A stretch of 32,000 nt of DNA from Desulfotalea psychrophila LSv54 (GTDB taxonomy: Bacteria; Desulfobacterota; Desulfobulbia; Desulfobulbales; Desulfocapsaceae), in NCBI RefSeq assembly GCF_000025945.1, contig NC_006138.1, forward strand, positions 1,650,001 to 1,682,000. Reading direction: 5' to 3'. Position 1 is the first letter of the stretch. The number at the start of each line of letters is the position of its first letter. Positions 21,985 through 32,000 of this stretch are shown in pieces. The notes beneath the pieces were generated by a model. The model was not told the origin of the DNA and did not search any database. It worked only from the letters and a program-made list of their open reading frames with translations. Both the position numbers and the translations under genes were made by a program.

Positions 21985-22008
21985 GTGTCGAATGTCGACA
22001 TTTTTTAT
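21985..22008. promoter_or_regulatory. Candidate GntR-type operator (site 1, autoregulatory) about 50 nt upstream of the GntR gene
   Basis: GTGTCGA-ATGTCGACAT. The 10-bp perfect palindrome ATGTCGACAT (21992-22001) recurs at 24113-24122 and 27833-27842. Confidence 0.55.
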
Positions 22009-22053
22009 CAAAAGCGCATAATGCATAAAATAGAATAGGGTTTCATAAACAAT

Positions 22054-22746
22054 ATGGCAGGTATAGTAAAAATTACTTATAGTGGCCAGGTAGTTAAATA
22101 TATTAAAGATATGGTCCTTAAGGGGGAGCTTGCCCCTGGCGATCAGGTTAAAGAAGCAGAAATATCAAAAAAATTAGATATTAGCCGTGCCCCTGTTCGA
22201 GAGGCAATGCAAATACTTATAAACGAAGGTCTGGTTTCTTCTAAGCCTCAAAAGAGAAAATATATAACCGCATTAACCTCGAAAGAAATTATTGATAGTT
22301 ATTTTACGGGCGGTGTTCTTGAGGCAGCAGCGGTTGCCAAGTCCCTGGACGCCTATTTAGCAAAAGATATTGTAAGGCTCGAAAAAATTGTAGAAAAAAT
22401 GCATGATCTCGCTGACTCGGACAGTCGTAGCGAACAGCTTGCCACCCTCGACAATCATTTTCACGACGTGCTGTTTTCCCGTGTTGATAATCAACTATTG
22501 ATTGAGCTTTGTCGGCGATCCTGTCAGGAGATTTCAAAATTTTTGCTATTTCGTTATTGGCGTAATCTGTTTTCAGTGGCAGAGGTCTATTCCCGTCATA
22601 AGGCAATTGTTGATGCTATAAAAAATGGTGACCTCGTGGAATTAGAGAAAGTCATTAGAAAGCATTATAATGATTCAGGACTGAGAATGTCACGCTATGG
22701 TATAGATAAAATTGATTTAACAAATAAAGGAATAAATCAAGACTGA
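22054..22746 (+). CDS. GntR-family transcriptional regulator, FadR/FCD subfamily
   Basis: The N-terminal winged HTH is GELAPGDQVKEAEISKKLDISRAPVREAMQILINEGLV. It is followed by an all-helical domain of about 150 aa with His residues typical of FCD domains. Confidence 0.9.
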   Translation: MAGIVKITYSGQVVKYIKDMVLKGELAPGDQVKEAEISKKLDISRAPVREAMQILINEGLVSSKPQKRKYITALTSKEIIDSYFTGGVLEAAAVAKSLDAYLAKDIVRLEKIVEKMHDLADSDSRSEQLATLDNHFHDVLFSRVDNQLLIELCRRSCQEISKFLLFRYWRNLFSVAEVYSRHKAIVDAIKNGDLVELEKVIRKHYNDSGLRMSRYGIDKIDLTNKGINQD

Positions 22747-22766
22747 TTTAACAGCCGAGGGGGGGG

Positions 22767-22857
22767 CGAGCACACTGTTGGCGTCCCCTAAGCAAAGAAT
22801 ATCTTCGACCTGTAATCATCATTCCAAGTAGCCTCTTAAGTTTATTCCTTTGGCTGG
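22767..22857 (+). repeat. 91-bp direct repeat, copy A (left flank of the IS)
   Basis: It aligns base-for-base, without gaps and with scattered substitutions, to 23909-23999 (CGAGCAYACTGTTGGCGTCCCCTAA...TGTAATCATCATTCCAA...CTTTGGCTGG). Confidence 0.75.
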
Positions 22858-22878
22858 AGCTGGGTGAGTAGAATAAGT

Positions 22879-23909
22879 GGGCGTTGTTGAACAAATCCAA
22901 ACGGCAAGTTTTCAATGCCCCATCGCTGTACTGTTCTAACGACAAACAGCTCCTCTAACGGACATTCCCAAAGCAGTTATCTTGCTTAATGCTTTGACGC
23001 AAGCCGACTTACCACTTGCGCATTGTAATCGCGAAGGCTCAATTTGCCACTGATCAACTGTTTGTAGCGATACATCGCTGTTTCAGCAAGAGACCTTTGA
23101 TGATACCCCTGTGCTTGCTTTCCACTCTTTCAACTCACCTTTTCGCAATGCTCCTATAGCCTCATTTCTTGGATGGCCTTCCTTCCACATAGCAGCATTT
23201 TTCCGTGGTGGATGAGCAGACACCTTTGATTCCAATAATTTCATAGCACTCTTTCGTATCGTATGCACCATTGTCTGATATCTGCTTTATGCGTCGTCGA
23301 AGAGGATTCAGTAGATGCCCTAAAACTTTGGAGTCATGAACGCGCTCTAGCGAGATTTCACCACTTAGGCGATCAGTCTCGGCATCGATTACAAGGTGAA
23401 TCTTACGCTAGGTTTTACGTTTGGAAGCCCCATGTTTTCTGACGCTCCACTCTCCTTCTCCATAGACTTTAAGCCCCGTCGAATCGATATGCTTAATCGG
23501 CCCACGACTTGGCAGCCTATAATTCACCTTAACAGTTTGGGCACGTCTGCTAACAGGTGTATCAGGTGCCTGGAGGTCGATATCTATCAGTTCAAAAAGT
23601 GAATTCAGAAAACCTTCAGTACCTCTGAGAGATAGGCCGTAAATGGTTCCACATTAAACAGGTGGTTATTGCATCATCAGTGTACTTGCGGCTACGGCCA
23701 CGCTGTCCCGATGGTGTCGTGCTGTACCAACTTTCAATTGCTTTCTTGTCCACCCAAAATGTCAACGCCATTGCTTCAGTGTCCTGTTATATTCCGGCCA
23801 ATTTTTGATCTTTCCCCTGCTCTCTCATTGCTCCTCCAATGTTTTCTGTATGTTACAAGAAAACATTGGAGGAGCAATGCTAGCAATTTCTATTTGTGCA
23901 ACAAGGCCC
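22879..23909 (-). mobile_element. IS903-group (IS5-family) insertion sequence, about 1.03 kb, with an inactivated transposase
   Basis: The terminal inverted repeats are GGGCGTTGTTGAACAAAT (22879-22896) and, on the reverse complement at 23892-23909, GGGCCTTGTTGCACAAAT (16/18 identical, close to the IS903 IR GGCTTTGTTGAATAAAT). The internal coding sequence resembles the IS903 transposase. No 9-bp target duplication is present. Confidence 0.8.
22986..23828 (-). pseudogene. IS903-like DDE transposase, broken by several frameshifts and stops
   Basis: Pieces in three frames match the transposase:
- IKNWPEYNRTLKQ
- LTFWVDKKAIESWYSTTPSGQRGRSRKYTDDAITT
- IDSTGLKVYGEGEWSVRKHG
- DNGAYDT
- SAHPPRKNAAMWKEGHPRNEAIGALRK...WK
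- GYHQRSLAETAMYRYKQLISGKLSLRDYNAQVV. Confidence 0.75.
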
Positions 23910-23999
23910 GAGCATACTGTTGGCGTCCCCTAATCAAAGAACACCTTCGCTTTGTAATCATCATTCCAATCAGTCTTTTAAGCTTGTTTCTTTGGCTGG
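23909..23999 (+). repeat. 91-bp direct repeat, copy B (right flank of the IS)
   Basis: See copy A; it has the same orientation. Confidence 0.75.
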
Positions 24000-24105
24000 C
24001 TGCCCCACAAAGATGTTGCCTCAGAGCTCATGAGAAACGTCTAAAAAAGACCAATTTCCCACAATTTAATATCTTGACAAACAAAAAAGGATACGTTAAT
24101 CCTGT

Positions 24106-24129
24106 ATAGCAAATGTCGACATTTGACAT
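24106..24129. promoter_or_regulatory. Candidate GntR-type operator (site 2) upstream of ridA copy 1, downstream of a TTGACA box (24074-24079)
   Basis: ATGTCGACAT (24113-24122) is followed by TTGACAT. The left heptamer is degenerate (ATAGCAA). Confidence 0.55.
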
Positions 24130-24178
24130 TTGGCACAGGTTGTTTAAACGTCTTTCATCAAACTTTGGAGTTATGTAA

Positions 24179-24574
24179 GTGGCAACTATGATTGAAAAAA
24201 AGATTATTGAGACAGAGGCTGCCCCAGCAGCAGTAGCAGCGTATTCACAGGCTGTGCAAGCGGGGAATTTATTATTTACCTCAGGGCAGTTACCCCTTGA
24301 TCCTTCATCGGGAAAAATAGTTACGGGGGATATTGTTGCCCAGGCCCATCAGGCGATAAAAAACCTTATTGCCATCGTTGAGGCTGCGGGAAGTAGCATC
24401 GACGATGTCATAAAAGTAACTGTTTATCTTGCAGACGTTAAAGATTCTGCAGCAGTTAACGAAGTCTATAACCAATATTTTTTTCAGCCCTATCCAGCTC
24501 GTAGTGCCTTTCAAGTAGCGGCACTCCCTCTGGCTGCAGGTTTAGAGATTGAAGCAATAGCAATTGTTAAATAA
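24179..24574 (+). CDS. ridA: RidA-family reactive enamine/imine deaminase (copy 1)
   Basis: YjgF/YER057c/UK114 hallmarks are present: APAAVAAYSQAV, LFTSGQLPLDP, and the conserved Arg in PYPARSAFQVAALP. The GTG at 24179 is 8 nt after GGAG; the ATG at 24188 is an alternative start. Confidence 0.9.
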   Translation: MATMIEKKIIETEAAPAAVAAYSQAVQAGNLLFTSGQLPLDPSSGKIVTGDIVAQAHQAIKNLIAIVEAAGSSIDDVIKVTVYLADVKDSAAVNEVYNQYFFQPYPARSAFQVAALPLAAGLEIEAIAIVK

Positions 24575-24599
24575 ATTTTTCATAAAGGATAAAAAAGTC

Positions 24600-25598
24600 A
24601 TGAATCTCACCCAATTCCCAAGAAGAAATTATCTCCAAGGACCTACTCCTATTGAAGCAGCCCCAAGGTTTTCTAAGGCCCTGGGTGGTAAGGTAAATGT
24701 TTTCATCAAGCGTGATGACCTGTTGCCCGGTTGTGCCGGTGGTAATAAGACCAGAAAATTGGATTTTTGTATTGCTGATGCGATAGAGAAGGGCGCTGAT
24801 ACGATTATTACCTGTGGTCCTGTTCAGTCTAATCACTGTCGTTTGACCCTTTCTTGGGCAGTTAAGGAAGAGATGGATTGTCATCTTATACTTGAAGAGC
24901 GTGTTCCGGGAAGCTATAAAGAAGATGGTTCCGGTAACAACTTCCTTTTCAATCTGATGGGCGTAAAGAGCACTCAGGTTGTTCCTGGTGGTTCCGATAT
25001 GATGGGTGAGATGGAGAAGCTTGCCAAGGAGCTTGAGGCTCAGGGCAAAAAACCTTATATCATTCCAGGCGGTGCCTCTAACGTTCTTGGCGCGACCGGT
25101 TATGTTGCCTGTGCCCAGGAAATTCAACAACAGCTCTTTCAACAAAACATTAATATAACTGATATAGTAGTCCCGAGTGGTAGCGCCGGTACCCATGCAG
25201 GTGTCGCCGTCGGTATGTACGGAATTAATTCCGGTATTAGGGTAAGCGGTATCAATGTAAGTAAGCCTAAGGATGTCCAGGAAGAGAATGTTTATAAGTT
25301 GGCATACGAAACTGCAAAAGCAGTAGGTGTGTGCGGAGAGCTTCCACGCGGTGAGATAACCTGTTTTGATGGCTATGTAGGTGCAGGTTATTCTCTGCCC
25401 ACCGATTCAATGGTTGAGGCAGTAAAGCTTCTTGCTCGAACTGAGGCAATCCTGCTTGATCCTGTTTATTCCGGCAAGGTTATGGCTGGTATGATCGACC
25501 TTATTCGAAACGATTATTTCGCTCCAGGAACAAATGTTTTATTTCTGCATACCGGTGGATCTCCCGCCCTCTATGCATATACCGATACGTTTAAATAG
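24600..25598 (+). CDS. PLP-dependent deaminase/lyase of the D-cysteine desulfhydrase / ACC deaminase / cysteate sulfo-lyase family (copy 1)
   Basis: The PLP-lysine motif GGNKTRKLDF is present, together with a Gly-rich phosphate loop (SGSAGTHAG) and the C-terminal LHTGG. Length is 332 aa from the ATG at 24600. Confidence 0.88.
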   Translation: MNLTQFPRRNYLQGPTPIEAAPRFSKALGGKVNVFIKRDDLLPGCAGGNKTRKLDFCIADAIEKGADTIITCGPVQSNHCRLTLSWAVKEEMDCHLILEERVPGSYKEDGSGNNFLFNLMGVKSTQVVPGGSDMMGEMEKLAKELEAQGKKPYIIPGGASNVLGATGYVACAQEIQQQLFQQNINITDIVVPSGSAGTHAGVAVGMYGINSGIRVSGINVSKPKDVQEENVYKLAYETAKAVGVCGELPRGEITCFDGYVGAGYSLPTDSMVEAVKLLARTEAILLDPVYSGKVMAGMIDLIRNDYFAPGTNVLFLHTGGSPALYAYTDTFK

Positions 25599-25608
25599 CT
25601 AAATTCAT

Positions 25609-25640
25609 GGCACCGTGACCCTTGTCTCGGTGCCTTTTTT
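25609..25640 (+). terminator. Intrinsic terminator after deaminase copy 1
   Basis: GGCACCG / CGGTGCC is a 7-bp stem with a 12-nt loop, followed by T6. Confidence 0.8.
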
Positions 25641-25707
25641 ATATAGTTTAGTTAAAAAGGTAATGACTTCTGTCAAACCTACAGCATAATTATGGAGGAA
25701 TTTTATA

Positions 25708-26976
25708 ATGAAACTGTATCACAAAATAATGATTGGCTTAGTTCTTGGTGTAATTGCCGGTCTGATTCTTGGAGAAAAAGCCGAATACTTAAAGCCTATC
25801 GGTGATATCTTCATTCGTTGCCTTCGTTTAATAGTTGTGCCCCTGATTCTTTCAACTCTTATTACAGGTGTTGTCAGCACTGGAAATATTAAAAATCTAG
25901 GAAAAACAGGAATTAGTACTCTGGTGTACTTCATGGTGACAACCACCTTGGCTGTTTGTATTGGATTACTTATTGCAAATATCTTTCAACCTGGAGCAGG
26001 ACTTTCCCTTGGTGAACTTAAAGTTTTTAAAGTTCCCGATACGCCCGGGCCTGCCCAGATGATCGTCGGCATGTTTCCACTAAACCCGATGGAGGCTCTT
26101 GCAAAAGGCAATGTCCTGCAGATCATAATTTTTGCATTACTCTTTGGAGCCGGACTCTCCATGGCCGGCGACAAAGGTAAACCCATTGCTGATTTTTTCC
26201 AAAGTCTTGCGGAAGTAATGTTCAAAGTTTCTGATCTCGTTATTAGCTTTGCTCCATATGGTGTCTTTGCTCTTATTGCATGGACAACCGGAAAATTCGG
26301 GCTGGATATATTGATGCCAATGGGGAAACTCATTATGTGTACTCTTCTTGCCGCTTTCGTACATATTATTGTATCTTATACCCTAATTGTGGCAACTGTC
26401 GCACGTATTTCTCCTTTAGCTTTCCTGAAAAAGACGATGGAGCCAGCGCTGGTAGGTTTGTCGACCTGTAGTGCCGCCGCCGCGTTCCCGTTTTCCATGC
26501 GTGCACAAAAACAGCTGGGTGTTTCACCAAAAGTCTCAGGGTTTACACTGCCCATGGCGCTTACCATAAATATGGACGGAACAGCCCTGTACCAGGCGGT
26601 TGCAGCTATGTTTATCGCTAATGCTTATGGAATTGATCTGTCATTGACCCAGCAGGGAACAATTGTGGCAACGGCAGTTTTAGCATCGGTTGGAACTGCG
26701 AGTATTCCAGGTGGGGGATTGATTATGCTGACCATGGTGCTCCAGTCGGTTGGTTTACCTCTTGAGGGGATTGCTATTGTTGCCGGAATTGATCGAATTT
26801 TGGATATGTTCCGCACAACAACTAATATCTTCGGTGATAACTCTGCCGGTGTCGTAGTTGCGTCTTTAGTAGGTGAGTTAGATCGTGAAATAGCAAACAC
26901 CCCTCTCGATGAATTGGAGCAAGGCAGTGGCGTTCACCTAGACAGTGACGGTCATATTGTTGACGAATTGGGATAA
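25708..26976 (+). CDS. Dicarboxylate/amino acid:cation symporter (DAACS, GltP/DctA/SstT-like)
   Basis: A 422-aa protein with typical DAACS motifs (SSAAxLP-like STCSAAAAFP, TINMDGTALYQ, DRxxDMxRT as DRILDMFRTTTN). A GGAGGA RBS lies 8 nt upstream. Confidence 0.9.
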   Translation: MKLYHKIMIGLVLGVIAGLILGEKAEYLKPIGDIFIRCLRLIVVPLILSTLITGVVSTGNIKNLGKTGISTLVYFMVTTTLAVCIGLLIANIFQPGAGLSLGELKVFKVPDTPGPAQMIVGMFPLNPMEALAKGNVLQIIIFALLFGAGLSMAGDKGKPIADFFQSLAEVMFKVSDLVISFAPYGVFALIAWTTGKFGLDILMPMGKLIMCTLLAAFVHIIVSYTLIVATVARISPLAFLKKTMEPALVGLSTCSAAAAFPFSMRAQKQLGVSPKVSGFTLPMALTINMDGTALYQAVAAMFIANAYGIDLSLTQQGTIVATAVLASVGTASIPGGGLIMLTMVLQSVGLPLEGIAIVAGIDRILDMFRTTTNIFGDNSAGVVVASLVGELDREIANTPLDELEQGSGVHLDSDGHIVDELG

Positions 26977-27038
26977 CTTTCCTACCTTACCATCATGAAC
27001 AGTTCAAGGTAGGACATTCTTCGTTTTGTATTCTGTAA

Positions 27039-27066
27039 GGCCTCCTAACTTAGGAGGCCTTTTGTT
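27039..27066 (+). terminator. Intrinsic terminator after the DAACS gene
   Basis: GGCCTCC / GGAGGCC is a 7-bp stem with a 7-nt loop, followed by TTTTGTT. Confidence 0.7.
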
Positions 27067-27734
27067 CGTAACGATATATTGCAGTTTCGGCGAGTGAATG
27101 CTGATGATACCCCGGTACTTTGCTTCCAATCCTCTAGCGCCCCTTTTCGAAGAGCTTTCACGGCGTTGTTGCGCGGATGTCCCTCTTTCCAAAATCCAGC
27201 ATTTTCTCGTGGGGGATGGGCCGACACCCTTGTTTGCAATAATCTCATAAGATTTTGTTCTGTTATAAACGACATATGCTTGAATTTGCTTTATTTTTTG
27301 TCGTAACGGATTGACCAAAGCCCCGAGCACTTCAGAATCATGAATCGTATCTAAAGATACTTCCGTGCTGATTATCTGATGCGTTTCAGTATTTACCGTC
27401 ACATGAAGTTTACGTCAAATCCTGTGTTTCTCTGCATCATGTTCTTCACTTGCCCTCGCAAAGACAGACTGAGCACGGATTTTAGCATTAGACTATCGCA
27501 ACAATTATCACTGTCATCTTTCGTTCTCTCCGCCCAGATTGCTCAGCCTTGTATCAACTTTTGGTGACACCCTCTTCTACTCAGAACGTTAACGCTGTTG
27601 CTTCAAAGCTCTGTTGTATTTAGGCTAATTTGTGGTCTTTTTTATGTTCTTCCCTATGCATCTTTCAGTGTTTTCTAAATGTTACAGAAAACACCATTGG
27701 TCAACCTGAGCAAGATATTTGTTTAACAACGCCC
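27067..27734 (-). mobile_element. Truncated, degraded second copy of the IS903-group element (one IR retained)
   Basis: The reverse-complement IR at 27717-27734 reads GGGCGTTGTTAAACAAAT. Transposase fragments include SAHPPRENAGFWKEGHPRNNAVKALRKGALEDWK and GYHQHSLAETAIYRY. The far end is missing and coding stops at about 27067. Confidence 0.7.
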
Positions 27735-27825
27735 TGTTGCACTTATTGTACTAAGCCAGCTCTGAAAAGTGCCATTTTTCATATTTTAATATCTTGACAA
27801 ATAAAAAATAATACGGTAACTCTGT

Positions 27826-27849
27826 ATGTCGAATGTCGACATTTGACAT
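27826..27849. promoter_or_regulatory. Candidate GntR-type operator (site 3, most complete) upstream of ridA copy 2, downstream of a TTGACA box (27794-27799)
   Basis: ATGTCGAATGTCGACATTTGACAT is a 24-bp palindrome, 22/24 self-complementary, centred on ATGTCGACAT (27833-27842). Confidence 0.6.
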
Positions 27850-27891
27850 AGGTTGTTTAAACGTCTTTCATCAAACTTTGGAGTTATGTAA

Positions 27892-28287
27892 GTGGCAACT
27901 ATGATTGAAAAAAAGATTATTGAGACAGAGGCTGCTCCAGCAGCAGTAGCAGCGTATTCACAGGCTGTGCAAGCGGGGAATTTATTATTTACCTCAGGGC
28001 AGTTACCCCTTGATCCTTCATCGGGGAAAATAGTTACCGGGGATATTTTTGCCCAGGCTCATCAGGCGATAAAAAACCTTATTGCCATTGTTGAAGCTGC
28101 AGGAAGTAGCATCAATGATGTCATAAAAGTAACTGTTTATCTTGCAGACATTAAAGATTCTGCAGCAGTGAACGAAGTCTATACCCACTATTTTTTTCAG
28201 CCCTATCCAGCTCGTAGTGCCTTTCAAGTAGCGGCACTCCCTCTGGCTGCAGGTCTGGAGATTGAAGCAATAGTAATTGTTAAATAA
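27892..28287 (+). CDS. ridA: RidA-family reactive enamine/imine deaminase (copy 2)
   Basis: Differs from copy 1 at 6 of 131 residues. The motifs are the same. Confidence 0.9.
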   Translation: MATMIEKKIIETEAAPAAVAAYSQAVQAGNLLFTSGQLPLDPSSGKIVTGDIFAQAHQAIKNLIAIVEAAGSSINDVIKVTVYLADIKDSAAVNEVYTHYFFQPYPARSAFQVAALPLAAGLEIEAIVIVK

Positions 28288-28312
28288 ATTTTTCATAAAG
28301 GATAAAAAAATC

Positions 28313-29311
28313 ATGAATCTCACACAATTCCCAAGAAGAAATTATCTCCAAGGACCTACTCCTATTGAAGCTGCACCAAGGTTTTCTAAGGCCCTGGGTG
28401 GTAAGGTAAATGTTTTTATTAAGCGTGATGATCTGTTGCCTGGTTGTGCTGGTGGTAATAAGACTAGAAAATTAGATTTTTGTATTGCTGATGCGATAGA
28501 GAAGGGCGCTGATACGATTATTACCTGTGGTGCTGTTCAGTCTAATCACTGCCGTTTGACCCTTTCTTGGGCAGTTAAGGAAGAGATGGATTGTCATCTT
28601 ATACTTGAAGAGCGTGTTCCTGGAAGCTATAAAAAAGATGGTTCCGGTAACAACTTTCTTTTCAATCTGATGGGCGTAAAGAGCACTCAGGTTGTTTCTG
28701 GTGGTTCCGATATGATGGGTGAGATGGAAAAGCTTGCCAAGGAGCTTGAGGCTCAGGGCAAAAAACCTTATATCATTCCAGGCGGAGCCTCTAATGCTAT
28801 TGGAGCAACCGGTTATGTTGCCTGTGCCCAGGAAATTCAGCAACAGCTTTTTGAGCAAAACATTAATATAACTGATATAGTTGTCCCGAGTGGTAGTGCC
28901 GGTACCCATGCTGGTGTTGCCGTTGGTATGTACGGAATTAATTCGGGTATTACAGTAAGTGGTATCAATGTAAGTAAGCCTAAGGCTGTCCAGGAAGAGA
29001 ATGTTTATAAATTGGCCAAGGAAACTGCAAAAAGAGTAGGTGTCCGCGGAGAGTTTCCACGCGATGAGATAACCTGTTTTGATGGCTATGTCGGTGCAGG
29101 GTATTCGTTGCCCACCGATTCAATGGTTGAGGCTGTAAAGCTTCTTGCTCGAACTGAGGCAATCCTGCTTGATCCTGTTTATTCCGGCAAGGTTATGGCT
29201 GGTATGATCGACCTTATTCGAAACGATTATTTTGCCCCGGGGGCAAATGTTTTATTTCTGCATACCGGTGGATCTCCCGCCCTCTATGCATATACCGACA
29301 CGTTTAAGTAA
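28313..29311 (+). CDS. PLP-dependent deaminase/lyase of the D-cysteine desulfhydrase / ACC deaminase / cysteate sulfo-lyase family (copy 2)
   Basis: Differs from copy 1 at 14 of 332 residues. The GGNKTRKLDF motif is the same. Confidence 0.88.
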   Translation: MNLTQFPRRNYLQGPTPIEAAPRFSKALGGKVNVFIKRDDLLPGCAGGNKTRKLDFCIADAIEKGADTIITCGAVQSNHCRLTLSWAVKEEMDCHLILEERVPGSYKKDGSGNNFLFNLMGVKSTQVVSGGSDMMGEMEKLAKELEAQGKKPYIIPGGASNAIGATGYVACAQEIQQQLFEQNINITDIVVPSGSAGTHAGVAVGMYGINSGITVSGINVSKPKAVQEENVYKLAKETAKRVGVRGEFPRDEITCFDGYVGAGYSLPTDSMVEAVKLLARTEAILLDPVYSGKVMAGMIDLIRNDYFAPGANVLFLHTGGSPALYAYTDTFK

Positions 29312-29320
29312 GCATAAAAA

Positions 29321-29361
29321 ACCTTCTACTGCTCTAAAAGAGCAGTAGAAGGTTTTTTTTT
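29321..29361 (+). terminator. Strong intrinsic terminator after deaminase copy 2
   Basis: ACCTTCTACTGCTC / GAGCAGTAGAAGGT is a perfect 14-bp stem with a 5-nt loop, followed by T9. Confidence 0.85.
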
Positions 29362-29414: not shown

Positions 29415-30410
29415 ATGAATTTTTTCAAAAAGCTCGTAGCAACTGCTGTACTTAGTCTATGTTTTGGTGTCACAGGCGCTGTTGCCGGCCCCACGGTTAT
29501 TAAACTCGCGCATCCCAATTTACCCCAGCATCCCATGGGGCAAGCATTCATTAAGTTTAAAGCCCTGGTAGAAGAGAGAACAAACGGTGAGTTTCGAGTA
29601 GATATTTTCGATAGCTCCAAGTTTGGTAATTTCGATAGTGTTGTTCAAGGATTACAGCTTAATATGCTCCAGATGGGGTCAGCTGCAACACCAAATCTTT
29701 CACCTTTTTCCGATGAATTCCTTATCTTTGATCTTCCCTTTCTTTTCCCAAGTTATGAGGCGGCAGATAAGATCACCGATGGCCCCATCGGTATGAATGC
29801 AACCAAGGCGCTGGAACCAAGTGGTATTATCGGTCTTGGCTATATCGAGATTGGTTTTCGTAATCTTTGGAATAACAAGCGTGCTGTGACAACCCTTGAA
29901 GATGCAAAAGGCTTGAAAATTCGCTCTACTCCTTCTAAGGCCCACATCGGGACTCTTAAGGCCCTTGGTATGAATCCAACTCCAATTTCATGGGGTGAGG
30001 TTTATACTGCCCTGCAACAAAAGACTGTTGATGGAATTGATATTGATTTGAACCTTGCGTGGCATAATAACTTCCCAGAAGTTAACAACCATTTGACTAT
30101 CGTGAACAGCCTGTATAGTCCTCATCTCGTGATGATCTCTAAACGCTTTCTTGATAGCTTAAACCCTGAAAACAGAGAGATTATTCTCTCTAGCTTTCAA
30201 GAGGCGAAGTTGTATGAGCGTAAGTTGATTCGTGATGGCGAAGCAGAAATTCTTGCTCAGCTTGAAGGGAAGGGCGTGACCGTAACTACTCTTTCTCCCG
30301 AAGAACGTCAGCGTTGGGCAGAGAAGACTGCAGTTGTTTATGAGCAGTTTCAGGATCGCATTGGTAAAGACCTCATCGAACAGGCAAGAGCCACCATGGC
30401 TGTAAAGTAG
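29415..30410 (+). CDS. TRAP transporter substrate-binding protein (DctP type)
   Basis: It has a signal peptide (ATAVLSLCFGVTGAVAG) and is 331 aa. DctP-family features are present, including the conserved Arg context (GLKIRS). An AGGAGA RBS is present. Confidence 0.9.
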   Translation: MNFFKKLVATAVLSLCFGVTGAVAGPTVIKLAHPNLPQHPMGQAFIKFKALVEERTNGEFRVDIFDSSKFGNFDSVVQGLQLNMLQMGSAATPNLSPFSDEFLIFDLPFLFPSYEAADKITDGPIGMNATKALEPSGIIGLGYIEIGFRNLWNNKRAVTTLEDAKGLKIRSTPSKAHIGTLKALGMNPTPISWGEVYTALQQKTVDGIDIDLNLAWHNNFPEVNNHLTIVNSLYSPHLVMISKRFLDSLNPENREIILSSFQEAKLYERKLIRDGEAEILAQLEGKGVTVTTLSPEERQRWAEKTAVVYEQFQDRIGKDLIEQARATMAVK

Positions 30411-30424
30411 AGGTATTTGAAAAC

Positions 30425-30460
30425 AAATAACCAAACAGATAGGTATTTGTTTGGTTATTT
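30425..30460 (+). other. Intercistronic stem-loop between the TRAP binding-protein and permease genes
   Basis: Perfect 13-bp inverted repeat AAATAACCAAACA / TGTTTGGTTATTT with a 10-nt loop. It is AT-rich with no long U-tract. Confidence 0.5.
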
Positions 30461-30481
30461 TATAGAAGTGGAGATCTTTGT

Positions 30482-30988
30482 ATGGGAATAATACCAAAAT
30501 CCAAAATACCTAATATTGAAATGCTGATTTCTTCTGGTGCTCTGGTGGTAATGACAGTTATTACCGTTGTCCAGGTTTTCAATCGATATGTGTTGCAAAA
30601 TTCACTTGATTGGTCGGAAGAACTTGCTCGTTATCTTTTTATTTGGGCAGTGTATGTTGGTTGTAGTTATGCTGTCTATAAAGATAGGCATCTTGAAGTA
30701 ACGATTCTTCGAACAATTTGTAACGGGAAGTTCGCTCGATCCTTAACACTCCTTTCTCTCACTCTCAATCTATTATTTTGTATCTTTGTTACAGTCGTTG
30801 GAATTAAGTTTGTTTTATTTCTTGCAAGCACAGGACAAAAGACCCCTGCTTTGGAAATTAGCGCTTACTGGGTATATCTTTCCATGCCTTTCGGTTTTGG
30901 TATGATGGGCCTAAGAGTAATTGAGAGAATCTGGTGGATCATGACGGGTAAGATTGATCCTACAGCTGTAGACATAATCAAGGAGTAG
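30482..30988 (+). CDS. TRAP transporter small permease (DctQ type)
   Basis: A 168-aa protein with four TM segments and a WSEELARYLFIW motif typical of DctQ. Confidence 0.85.
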   Translation: MGIIPKSKIPNIEMLISSGALVVMTVITVVQVFNRYVLQNSLDWSEELARYLFIWAVYVGCSYAVYKDRHLEVTILRTICNGKFARSLTLLSLTLNLLFCIFVTVVGIKFVLFLASTGQKTPALEISAYWVYLSMPFGFGMMGLRVIERIWWIMTGKIDPTAVDIIKE

Positions 30989-30994
30989 TTATCC

Positions 30995-32000
30995 ATGGAC
31001 TTCACTATAATATCTATCTTTGTTTCATTAGCAATATTTCTCCTTGCCAGCGTACCCATCGGCATTGCTATTGGTATGAGTGTCATTGTGGGCATGACCT
31101 TTGGCGATATGCTGCCCTATGAATTTTTGATTCAAAAGATGGTGACATCATTAGATGTGTTTCCTCTTATGGCGGTACCTTTTTTCATAATGGCAGGCGA
31201 AGTTATGCAAAAGGGAAGCATGGCGCAACGATTACTGAATGTGTCTCGCGCATTGGTAGGACATTTAACAGGTGGTATGGCTCATATCTCCATACTGACA
31301 AGCATGTTTTACGGTTCTCTTTCTGGATCAGCCCCTGCAACGGTTGCGGCCGTCGGTGGAATTATGATTCCGGCGATGGAAAAGGAGAATTATAGCAAAT
31401 CTTTTGCCACGGCCGTTAATACGGCGGCTGGCTGTTTGGGGGTTATTATTCCTCCAAGTGTGCCACTTATTATTTACGGTACAACAGCAGGTGTTTCTGT
31501 TGGTGATCTTTTTATTGCAGGCGTTATTCCGGGCTTGTTTATTGGTCTTGCCCTGATGCTCTGTAGCTATGTTTTAGCAAAAAAATATGGTTTTACAGGT
31601 TCTGCGCAGCAGGCAACTATTGGTGAGATTTTAACGGCGGTTTTAGCCTCTCTTCCCGCCCTGATGGTTCCTATTATTGTTTTGGGCGGAATTTATGGTG
31701 GTTTTACGACACCTACGGAAGCTGGTGTTATTGCGGTTGTTTACGCACTTGTTGTTGAAGGCCTTTTCCTGCGGACCTTAAGTGTGAGCAAAGTTGTGGA
31801 GGTTTTCAAATCTACGGCGCTGACAACAGCCTCTATTTTTCTTGTTGTTGCAACGGCGACAGCCCTTGGGCAAATTTTACTTTTTTATAACCTTCCTAAC
31901 CAATTAGTAGAAATATTGAGTAATATTTCAGACAATAGATATGTTCTTATTGCGATAATACTCTTGTTTTTGATTGTGATGGGAACCTTTATGGATGCCC
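30995..32000 (+). CDS. TRAP transporter large permease (DctM type), 3' end outside the window
   Basis: It is not in the ORF track because it has no stop inside the window. My translation from the ATG at 30995 reads MDFTIISIFVSLAIFLL...FPLMAVPFFIMAGEVMQKGSMAQRLL...IIPPSVPLIIYG, which is typical DctM. AGGAG lies 9 nt upstream, overlapping the end of dctQ. Confidence 0.9.
   Translation, partial: MDFTIISIFVSLAIFLLASVPIGIAIGMSVIVGMTFGDMLPYEFLIQKMVTSLDVFPLMAVPFFIMAGEVMQKGSMAQRLLNVSRALVGHLTGGMAHISILTSMFYGSLSGSAPATVAAVGGIMIPAMEKENYSKSFATAVNTAAGCLGVIIPPSVPLIIYGTTAGVSVGDLFIAGVIPGLFIGLALMLCSYVLAKKYGFTGSAQQATIGEILTAVLASLPALMVPIIVLGGIYGGFTTPTEAGVIAVVYALVVEGLFLRTLSVSKVVEVFKSTALTTASIFLVVATATALGQILLFYNLPNQLVEILSNISDNRYVLIAIILLFLIVMGTFMDA

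Follow-up and report, generated by a model that had tools for sequence, protein, structure and literature searches.

Two copies of a ridA operon lie behind the gene for a GntR-family regulator in the genome of Desulfotalea psychrophila LSv54 (NCBI RefSeq assembly GCF_000025945.1, contig NC_006138.1), and the same short palindrome precedes the regulator gene and both operons. Is this palindrome the binding site of the regulator, and if so, which genes are controlled by it? We analysed a stretch of 32,000 nucleotides containing these genes (positions 1,650,001 to 1,682,000 of the forward strand; hereafter the window, whose own coordinates are used unless marked otherwise). An earlier note, made from the letters of the window, had described a perfect 10-bp palindrome at the three places and had proposed that the GntR protein represses its own gene and both operons. 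Comparison with other genomes indicates that a slightly longer palindrome, AATGTCGACATT, together with its outer boxes is very probably the operator of the adjacent FCD-type GntR protein, which is predicted to repress gntR and both operons, here called ridA-cuyA after the candidate D-cysteate sulfo-lyase gene that follows ridA.

The 10-bp palindrome, ATGTCGACAT, was found exactly where the note had placed it (21992-22001, 24113-24122 and 27833-27842, sites 1, 2 and 3) and nowhere else in the window, with no copies expected from 100 shuffled windows. However, all three sites share a longer perfect palindrome of 12 bp, AATGTCGACATT (21991-22002, 24112-24123, 27832-27843), which is the conserved unit. 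The flanks agree with the initial description. Site 3 (ATGTCGA-ATGTCGACAT-TTGACAT) is a 24-nt palindrome at 27826-27849, self-complementary in 22 of 24 positions. Site 1 (gTGTCGA-ATGTCGACAT-ttttt) has kept only the left flanking heptamer, and site 2 (tagcaa-ATGTCGACAT-TTGACAT) only the right one. The outer TGTC and GACA boxes, 7 nt further out on either side, are weaker than the AATGTCGACATT core. Sites 1 and 3 have 18 identical nucleotides in common (TGTCGAATGTCGACATTT), and their flanks are otherwise unrelated.

A genome-wide search, which the note had suggested for defining the regulon, covered 3.66 Mb in three replicons (3,523,383, 121,587 and 14,664 bp); sites were scored by a 26-nt position weight matrix (PWM) built from orthologous sites. 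The 10-mer is not rare, as its six copies are an unremarkable number among palindromes of the same composition. The 12-mer, on the other hand, has three exact copies, all at the sites described above, and three more variants with one mismatch, each within a long open reading frame. In the matrix scan the three sites score 27.0 bits or more (Table 1) and the next best position 14.1 bits, a gap of 13 bits. No weaker sites were observed at the starts of the DAACS, TRAP and MFS genes: the best scores in the spacers between cuyA and the transporter genes and upstream of the MFS gene are negative, and the possibility of weaker operators at the TRAP and DAACS promoters, raised by the note, was not borne out. 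Since there are only three high-scoring sites and none at the transporter or MFS genes, the candidate regulon is strictly local, comprising gntR and the two ridA operons, as had been suggested.

The other three exact genomic copies of the 10-mer were rejected as sites, having no AA/TT flanks. The one at C1:2966803 has a PWM score of only about 8 bits, and those at C1:2350206 and C1:2358233 are outside the 25 best-scoring sites listed. The latter two are 8 kb apart with identical flanks of 30-40 nt; hence both belong to a repeated sequence, unrelated to the operator.

The motif is conserved far outside the window. Among 40 relatives, orthologues of the regulator were observed in four genomes of the same family (54-59% identity) and in one of another family (40% identity), and CuyA was found in exactly these regulator-bearing genomes. 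There gntR lies downstream of ridA-cuyA and of a DAACS gene or dctPQM (downstream of the transporter genes in relatives G001, G002, G003 and G016), and TGTCGACA with a flanking TTCGACA box is located upstream of ridA. Scanning a species-dereplicated collection with an alignment of the orthologues returned 80 loci (1.28 Mb) that come from sulfate- and sulfite-reducing bacteria of several orders: Maridesulfovibrio, Desulfomicrobium, Halodesulfovibrio, Desulfobacula, Desulfotignum, Desulfoluna, Desulfopila, Desulforhopalus, Desulfogranum, Mailhella, Bilophila wadsworthia, Desulfovibrio piger and Desulfuromonadales. These loci contain 51 exact copies of AATGTCGACATT, distributed over 42 loci, whereas none of 179 composition-matched control palindromes exceeds two copies. 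All copies but one fall within 700 nt upstream of ridA (24), gntR (13), cuyA (7) or the DAACS gene (6), and none of the 51 lies inside these genes. A site with at most one mismatch was found in 32 of the 41 cuyA-bearing loci; the other nine are mostly cut at the 5' end of the operon or have variants such as ATTGTCGACAAT. In the set of 65 orthologous sites the 12-nt core is nearly invariant (1.5-2.0 bits per position), whereas the outer boxes carry about 0.35 bits, are only 50-60% conserved and are often present on one side only.

In loci of Desulfopila, Desulforhopalus and Desulfogranum a second exact operator was observed about 420-430 nt upstream of the ridA-proximal one (L033 2024, L035 3636, L039 2849, L041 3237), which implies another regulated small gene or promoter.

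Across genomes, the motif goes with the regulator rather than with the enzyme. Of 401 genomes sampled evenly from the phylum, 20 encode CuyA, ten the regulator and seven both. Fourteen cuyA loci from regulator-less genomes (one unlinked second copy included) contain no sites with up to one mismatch and no TGTCGACA cores, whereas in genomes that do encode the regulator the site is present at six of nine cuyA loci. The converse situation is observed in a group of paralogues, mostly from Desulfuromonadales, that are 36-40% identical to the regulator and are not encoded beside cuyA. The motif occurs 20-35 nt before the start of their own gntR genes, often as the 22-bp palindrome TGTCTAATGTCGACATTAGACA over the -10 box (loci L075-L094, L099, L102). 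In one locus, L022, a double site (9954, 10719) is situated just downstream of the regulator gene, ahead of ATP-grasp, radical SAM and M20 peptidase genes. By these patterns the paralogues are predicted to use the same operator for a different regulon.

Deviating motifs were also seen. One Desulfovibrionales-type genus, whose regulators are 41-43% identical, has no exact motif near cuyA; one locus has AATGTTGACATT instead, and a Bilophila-like locus has TATGTTGACATT (L116 2561; L115, L117, L131; L071 6645). The forms AATGTTGACATT and TATGTTGACATT may be diverged operator variants.

The regulator consists of a winged helix-turn-helix (wHTH) domain and an all-helical FCD effector domain (Table 1). 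Three histidines, H137, H182 and H204, are invariant across seven orthologues and are taken by us to be the metal site of the FCD domain. The recognition helix ISRAP(V/I)REA is invariant across both the orthologues and the paralogue group, in accordance with the invariant core of the motif. Covariation of the helix with motif position 2 (AAT and ATT variants) was sought as well and none was seen, the helix being invariant. The palindrome, read as AAT-GT-CG-AC-ATT, conforms to the rule NyGT-Nx-ACNy for GntR operators with x = 2, and the earlier suggestion that it fits this rule thus holds; in the FadR subfamily x is usually 3, with exceptions (PMC4494728). The flanking heptamers are not unusual, since GntR operators have been described as generally having additional, weaker half-sites at 7-12 nt from their centre (PMC4494728).

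Alignment of the upstream regions points to repression. Almost all operators are preceded by a TTGAC(A/T) box. The operator of each inspected locus either provides or overlaps the -10 hexamer, or starts 3-15 nt downstream of it, and none is located upstream of the -35 box, an arrangement characteristic of repressor sites. Examples of the overlap are TTGACT-17 nt-TAATGT in Desulfuromonadales, where the left half of the motif is the -10 hexamer, TTGACA-17 nt-AAAAAT in Mailhella and TTGACT-17 nt-TAGTAT in D. piger. In the window, the ridA operators begin about 9 nt after weak -10 candidates, and the best promoter match before gntR has its -35 hexamer within the operator. This geometry and the association of the motif with the regulator across species support the proposed autoregulation and repression of both operons.

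The GntR protein could also bind the palindrome as an activator, or both activate and repress. The weak -10 hexamers of the ridA promoters would agree with that, as weak promoters sometimes need an activator, and some FadR-family proteins are generally known to activate, e.g. FadR at fabA. However, the position of the site relative to the -10 and -35 boxes argues against activation in all inspected loci. Moreover, the -10 or -35 hexamer is in many loci a part of the operator, and pathway-specific FCD regulators of catabolic operons are, as a rule, repressors released by the substrate. We consider activation improbable. Still smaller is the probability that the palindrome is recognised by some other DNA-binding protein and the GntR gene is a bystander. 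Co-localisation of the motif and the gene is indeed a correlation only, but the motif accompanies the regulator gene even without cuyA, is missing from cuyA loci that have no regulator, and fits the operator rule of the family; in addition, other FadR-subfamily proteins with the SRAPIREA helix are also predicted to bind palindromes of the form xxTGTCGACAxx.

A perfect palindrome in a 5' leader might alternatively act as an RNA hairpin affecting termination, stability or translation. Indeed, an 11-bp stem is possible at site 3 (-12.4 kcal/mol, z-score -3.2), which a simple scan marked as terminator-like. However, folding of the three sites is weak (-7 to -12 kcal/mol) and differs in register, and sites 1 and 2 each have lost one outer arm. 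The 65 orthologous sites preserve the core as a sequence, and, with the outer boxes only 50-60% conserved, a longer stem has not been maintained. At many loci the site is within promoter hexamers and hence would be left out of the transcript. An RNA hairpin is therefore slightly less probable again than a bystander gene. The remaining possibility, that the repeat is a functionless by-product of duplication and chance, would account for sites 2 and 3, which are copies of one sequence, and for the unremarkable genomic count of the 10-mer. It does not account for site 1, which lies in unrelated sequence and yet has 18 nt in common with site 3, and it is refuted by the cross-species counts, with 51 exact copies in 80 loci against at most two for the controls; its probability is negligible.

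Several observations weigh against a repressor operator as the explanation. The promoter, ridA and lyase gene were duplicated as a block (approximately 24045-25598 and 27765-29311, with about 95% identity in the coding part and 81% in the 85-nt promoter part). Sites 2 and 3 were copied within this single duplication, and thus only two of the three sites in the genome are independent. Moreover, little can be concluded from operators 2 and 3 being identical, as they are at the edge of a near-identical tract with one mismatch in about 180 nt, which may reflect gene conversion. The proposed ridA -10 hexamers, TAATCC and TAACTC, do not have the usual final T and are poor matches. Within the FadR subfamily, operators more commonly have the spacing GT-N3-AC than the GT-N2-AC observed here (PMC4494728). 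Finally, three orthologue-bearing cuyA loci of one genus have no exact motif (no site in two of them, and AATGTTGACATT in the third). Footprinting of the promoter between the two copies, where 16 mismatches in 85 nt spare the -35 box and the operator, was not counted for the operator, because the region borders the tract of possible gene conversion and the blocks were selected post hoc.

Repression by the GntR protein could proceed as follows. A dimer of the regulator would bind the central palindrome, and the outer boxes may add contacts or accommodate a second dimer. At the ridA-cuyA promoters, the protein bound downstream of the -10 box would block RNA polymerase or promoter escape, and at the gntR promoter the overlap of the operator with the candidate -35 hexamer would result in negative autoregulation. 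Binding of D- or L-cysteate or a close derivative by the metal-containing FCD domain would then release the repressor from DNA; the identity of this effector is a guess. The derepressed cell would produce both CuyA and RidA. CuyA would convert cysteate to pyruvate, ammonium and sulfite, the last of which is respired, and the 2-aminoacrylate intermediate would be cleared by RidA. Transcription of the DAACS and TRAP genes would require either read-through of the hairpins after cuyA or separate promoters; since the starts of these genes have no operators, control of the transporters would depend on read-through of these terminator-like hairpins.

Induction by the substrate is supported indirectly, by analogy with B. 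wadsworthia, in which CuyA is strongly induced by cysteate, being prominent in cysteate-grown and not in thiosulfate-grown cells (PMC11193023). At the B. wadsworthia locus (L059) an orthologue of the regulator adjoins cuyA, and an exact AATGTCGACATT is located about 30 nt before cuyA.

One further possibility, which we regard as doubtful, is that the outer boxes set the strength of repression. The 24-nt site of the TRAP copy (34 bits) would bind two dimers cooperatively, and the one-sided sites of the DAACS copy (29 bits) and gntR (27 bits) would be weaker. If so, the paralogous operons would switch on at different cysteate concentrations, providing graded low- and high-affinity uptake and degradation that evolved by duplication of an operator-promoter-enzyme cassette.

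The features of the region are listed in Table 1.

Table 1. Predicted operators, promoters, genes and hairpins of the gntR and ridA-cuyA region (window coordinates).
Feature	Position	Strand	Details
Predicted operator at the gntR promoter	21986..22003		core 21991-22002, left outer box TGTCGA 21986-21991; 27.0 bits
Candidate gntR promoter	21995..22022	+	TCGACA, 16 nt, CATAAT; 10/12 consensus matches; -35 within operator
gntR, 230-aa FadR-subfamily regulator	22054..22746	+	wHTH: PF00392, residues 11-69, 54.3 bits (cut-off 27); FCD: PF07729, residues 88-206, 58.4 bits (cut-off 24.3)
Candidate ridA1 promoter	24074..24102	+	TTGACA 24074-24079, 17 nt, weak -10 TAATCC 24097-24102
Predicted operator, ridA-cuyA copy 1	24112..24129		core 24112-24123, right outer box (T)TGACAT; 28.7 bits
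ridA copy 1, enamine/imine deaminase	24179..24574	+	PF01042; TIGR00004 165 bits (cut-off 106)
cuyA copy 1, D-cysteate sulfo-lyase (by profile)	24564..25598	+	NF052482 507 bits (cut-off 450)
Terminator-like hairpin and T6, cuyA1/DAACS gap	25609..25640	+	-18.7 kcal/mol, z-score -5.7
DAACS (sodium:dicarboxylate symporter) transporter	25708..26976	+	PF00375 438 bits; without own operator
Candidate ridA2 promoter	27794..27822	+	TTGACA 27794-27799, 17 nt, weak -10 TAACTC
Predicted operator, ridA-cuyA copy 2	27826..27849		core 27832-27843, both outer boxes; 34.1 bits, best site of the genome
ridA copy 2	27892..28287	+	domain match; relative to copy 1 dS 0.13, dN 0.02
cuyA copy 2	28277..29311	+	NF052482 515 bits (cut-off 450); relative to copy 1 dS 0.21, dN 0.02
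Terminator-like hairpin and T-run, cuyA2/dctP gap	29316..29358	+	-30.2 kcal/mol, z-score -9
TRAP transporter dctP, dctQ, dctM	29415..32000	+	profile matches; dctM runs past the window end

Both lyases pass the equivalog cut-off of NF052482 and by this profile are CuyA, the D-cysteate sulfo-lyase, and the operons are thus predicted to release sulfite from cysteate. The products of CuyA from cysteate are pyruvate, ammonium and sulfite, and bacteria reducing sulfate and sulfite use the latter as an electron acceptor for respiration (PMC11193023, PMC12814064). The D-cysteate sulfo-lyase activity was shown for the enzymes of Bilophila and Ruegeria, and two CuyA copies with no CuyB nearby were reported in D. 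psychrophila LSv54 (PMC11193023). The DAACS transporter encoded behind the first copy probably serves cysteate uptake. The divergence between the copies (Table 1) means that both are under purifying selection and that the duplication is not very recent.

The -35 block of the ridA promoter is identical in both copies, inside the 81%-identical stretch. From the operator to approximately codon 60 of ridA (24112-24360 and 27832-28073) the copies differ by one substitution and a 7-nt indel; this tract may have arisen by gene conversion or may be under strong constraint as a leader.

A strong stem-loop, usually followed by a T-run, is located right after the cuyA stop codon and before the transporter gene, both in the two copies of the window and in several relatives (L017 11783-11902 on the minus strand, L024 5572-5715, L020 5340-5485). 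This suggests partial termination setting the ratio of enzyme to transporter, or stabilisation of the 3' end.

Decayed transposase remnants were found upstream of both ridA copies (22767-23999 and 27004-27402). They include a DDE_Tnp_1_5 fragment at 23616-23771 on the minus strand, similar peptides VSAHPPRxNA..WKEGHPRN at 23083-23271 and 27045-27275, and 91-nt direct repeats with 85% identity at 22767-22857 and 23909-23999. Insertion sequences may have mediated the duplication and may also have separated gntR from the operon.

Two genes of the Asp/Glu-racemase family (PF01177) are encoded far from cuyA (C1:2172192-2172845 and C1:765701-766243), with no operators within 1.5 kb of either. Either gene might encode a cysteate racemase (CuyB) unlinked from cuyA; if neither does, use of cysteate may be restricted to the D-form.

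The pair of regulator and motif is not new as such, having been known so far only as an anonymous prediction. The DVU2644 group of the FadR subfamily is listed in file S2 of the computational study by Suvorova, Korostelev and Gelfand 2015, which refers to RegPrecise, with the predicted sites AAAATGTCGACATTTA before DVU2647-2644 of D. vulgaris and CGAATGTCGACATTTT before Dde_2582-2579, and also AAATTGTCGACAATCG, for Dde_2579 of D. alaskensis (PMC4494728). The window thus is a further instance of a regulog already predicted computationally for Desulfovibrio. The DNA-binding domain of its regulator is 71% identical to that of Dde_2579 (E-value 1e-29) and 55% identical to that of DVU2644 (1e-25), both values referring to the printed 65-aa fragments only. 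The DVU2644 prediction probably derives from Kazakov et al. 2013 (J Bacteriol 195:29). A search of full-text literature retrieved no papers on DVU2644-2647 or Dde_2579/2581 and no experimental work on the regulator-motif pair.

What is added here is, firstly, the identity of the target genes, now recognisable as a cysteate (CuyA/RidA) module following the biochemistry of CuyA, which dates from 2024. Given these targets, the regulator probably acts as the switch for cysteate in bacteria reducing sulfate and sulfite, which would include the gut pathobiont B. wadsworthia and D. piger. Secondly, the regulator-operator pair extends far beyond Desulfovibrio. Finally, in the genome considered here the operator-promoter-enzyme cassette has been duplicated beside two types of transporters, and gntR has gained a separate operator. 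The 12-bp motif is sufficiently specific for annotation of cysteate regulons in genomes and metagenomes. The system is a simple and directly testable repressor-operator pair and does not change any concept of gene regulation.

The closest known systems are those of DVU2644 and Dde_2579, which have the same core motif AATGTCGACATT, an orthologous regulator and the same ISRAP(V/I)REA helix, and whose four-gene operons ending in the regulator gene match the order ridA-cuyA-transporter-gntR seen in the relatives. In the window, however, gntR is not the last gene of an operon but lies upstream of the operons and has a promoter and an operator to itself; the layout differs, and the regulator-operator pair does not. 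Furthermore, the genome belongs to another order, Desulfobulbales, and the catabolic unit is duplicated, each copy having its own operator.

More distant parallels are provided by FadR, PdhR, LldR, DgoR and UxuR/ExuR. Like the regulator considered here, they combine a wHTH with an alpha-helical effector domain and have a palindromic T.GT..AC.A operator over or just after the promoter; release by carboxylate ligands and frequent autoregulation are features of this group. The differences are the spacing from GT to AC, which is 2 nt here and usually 3 nt, and the effector, which here is presumably an amino-sulfonate. Operators of the NanR type, with three direct hexamer repeats and no central palindrome, do not match, as a perfect central palindrome dominates here. 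An analogous role can be ascribed to CuyR of Ruegeria pomeroyi, whose gene adjoins cuyA in the cuyARZ locus of the organism in which CuyA was first described. CuyR presumably belongs to the LysR type.

The cysteate cluster of B. wadsworthia encodes an SDF transporter, the CuyB racemase, CuyA, RidA and a transcriptional regulator, with the regulator and its operator outside the scope of that analysis (PMC11193023). It has CuyA, RidA, a DAACS/SDF transporter and an adjacent regulator in common with the window; the B. wadsworthia regulator is about 41% identical to that of D. psychrophila, and the motif before cuyA is the same. In contrast to B. wadsworthia, the window has no racemase gene and contains two paralogous operons with transporters of different classes.

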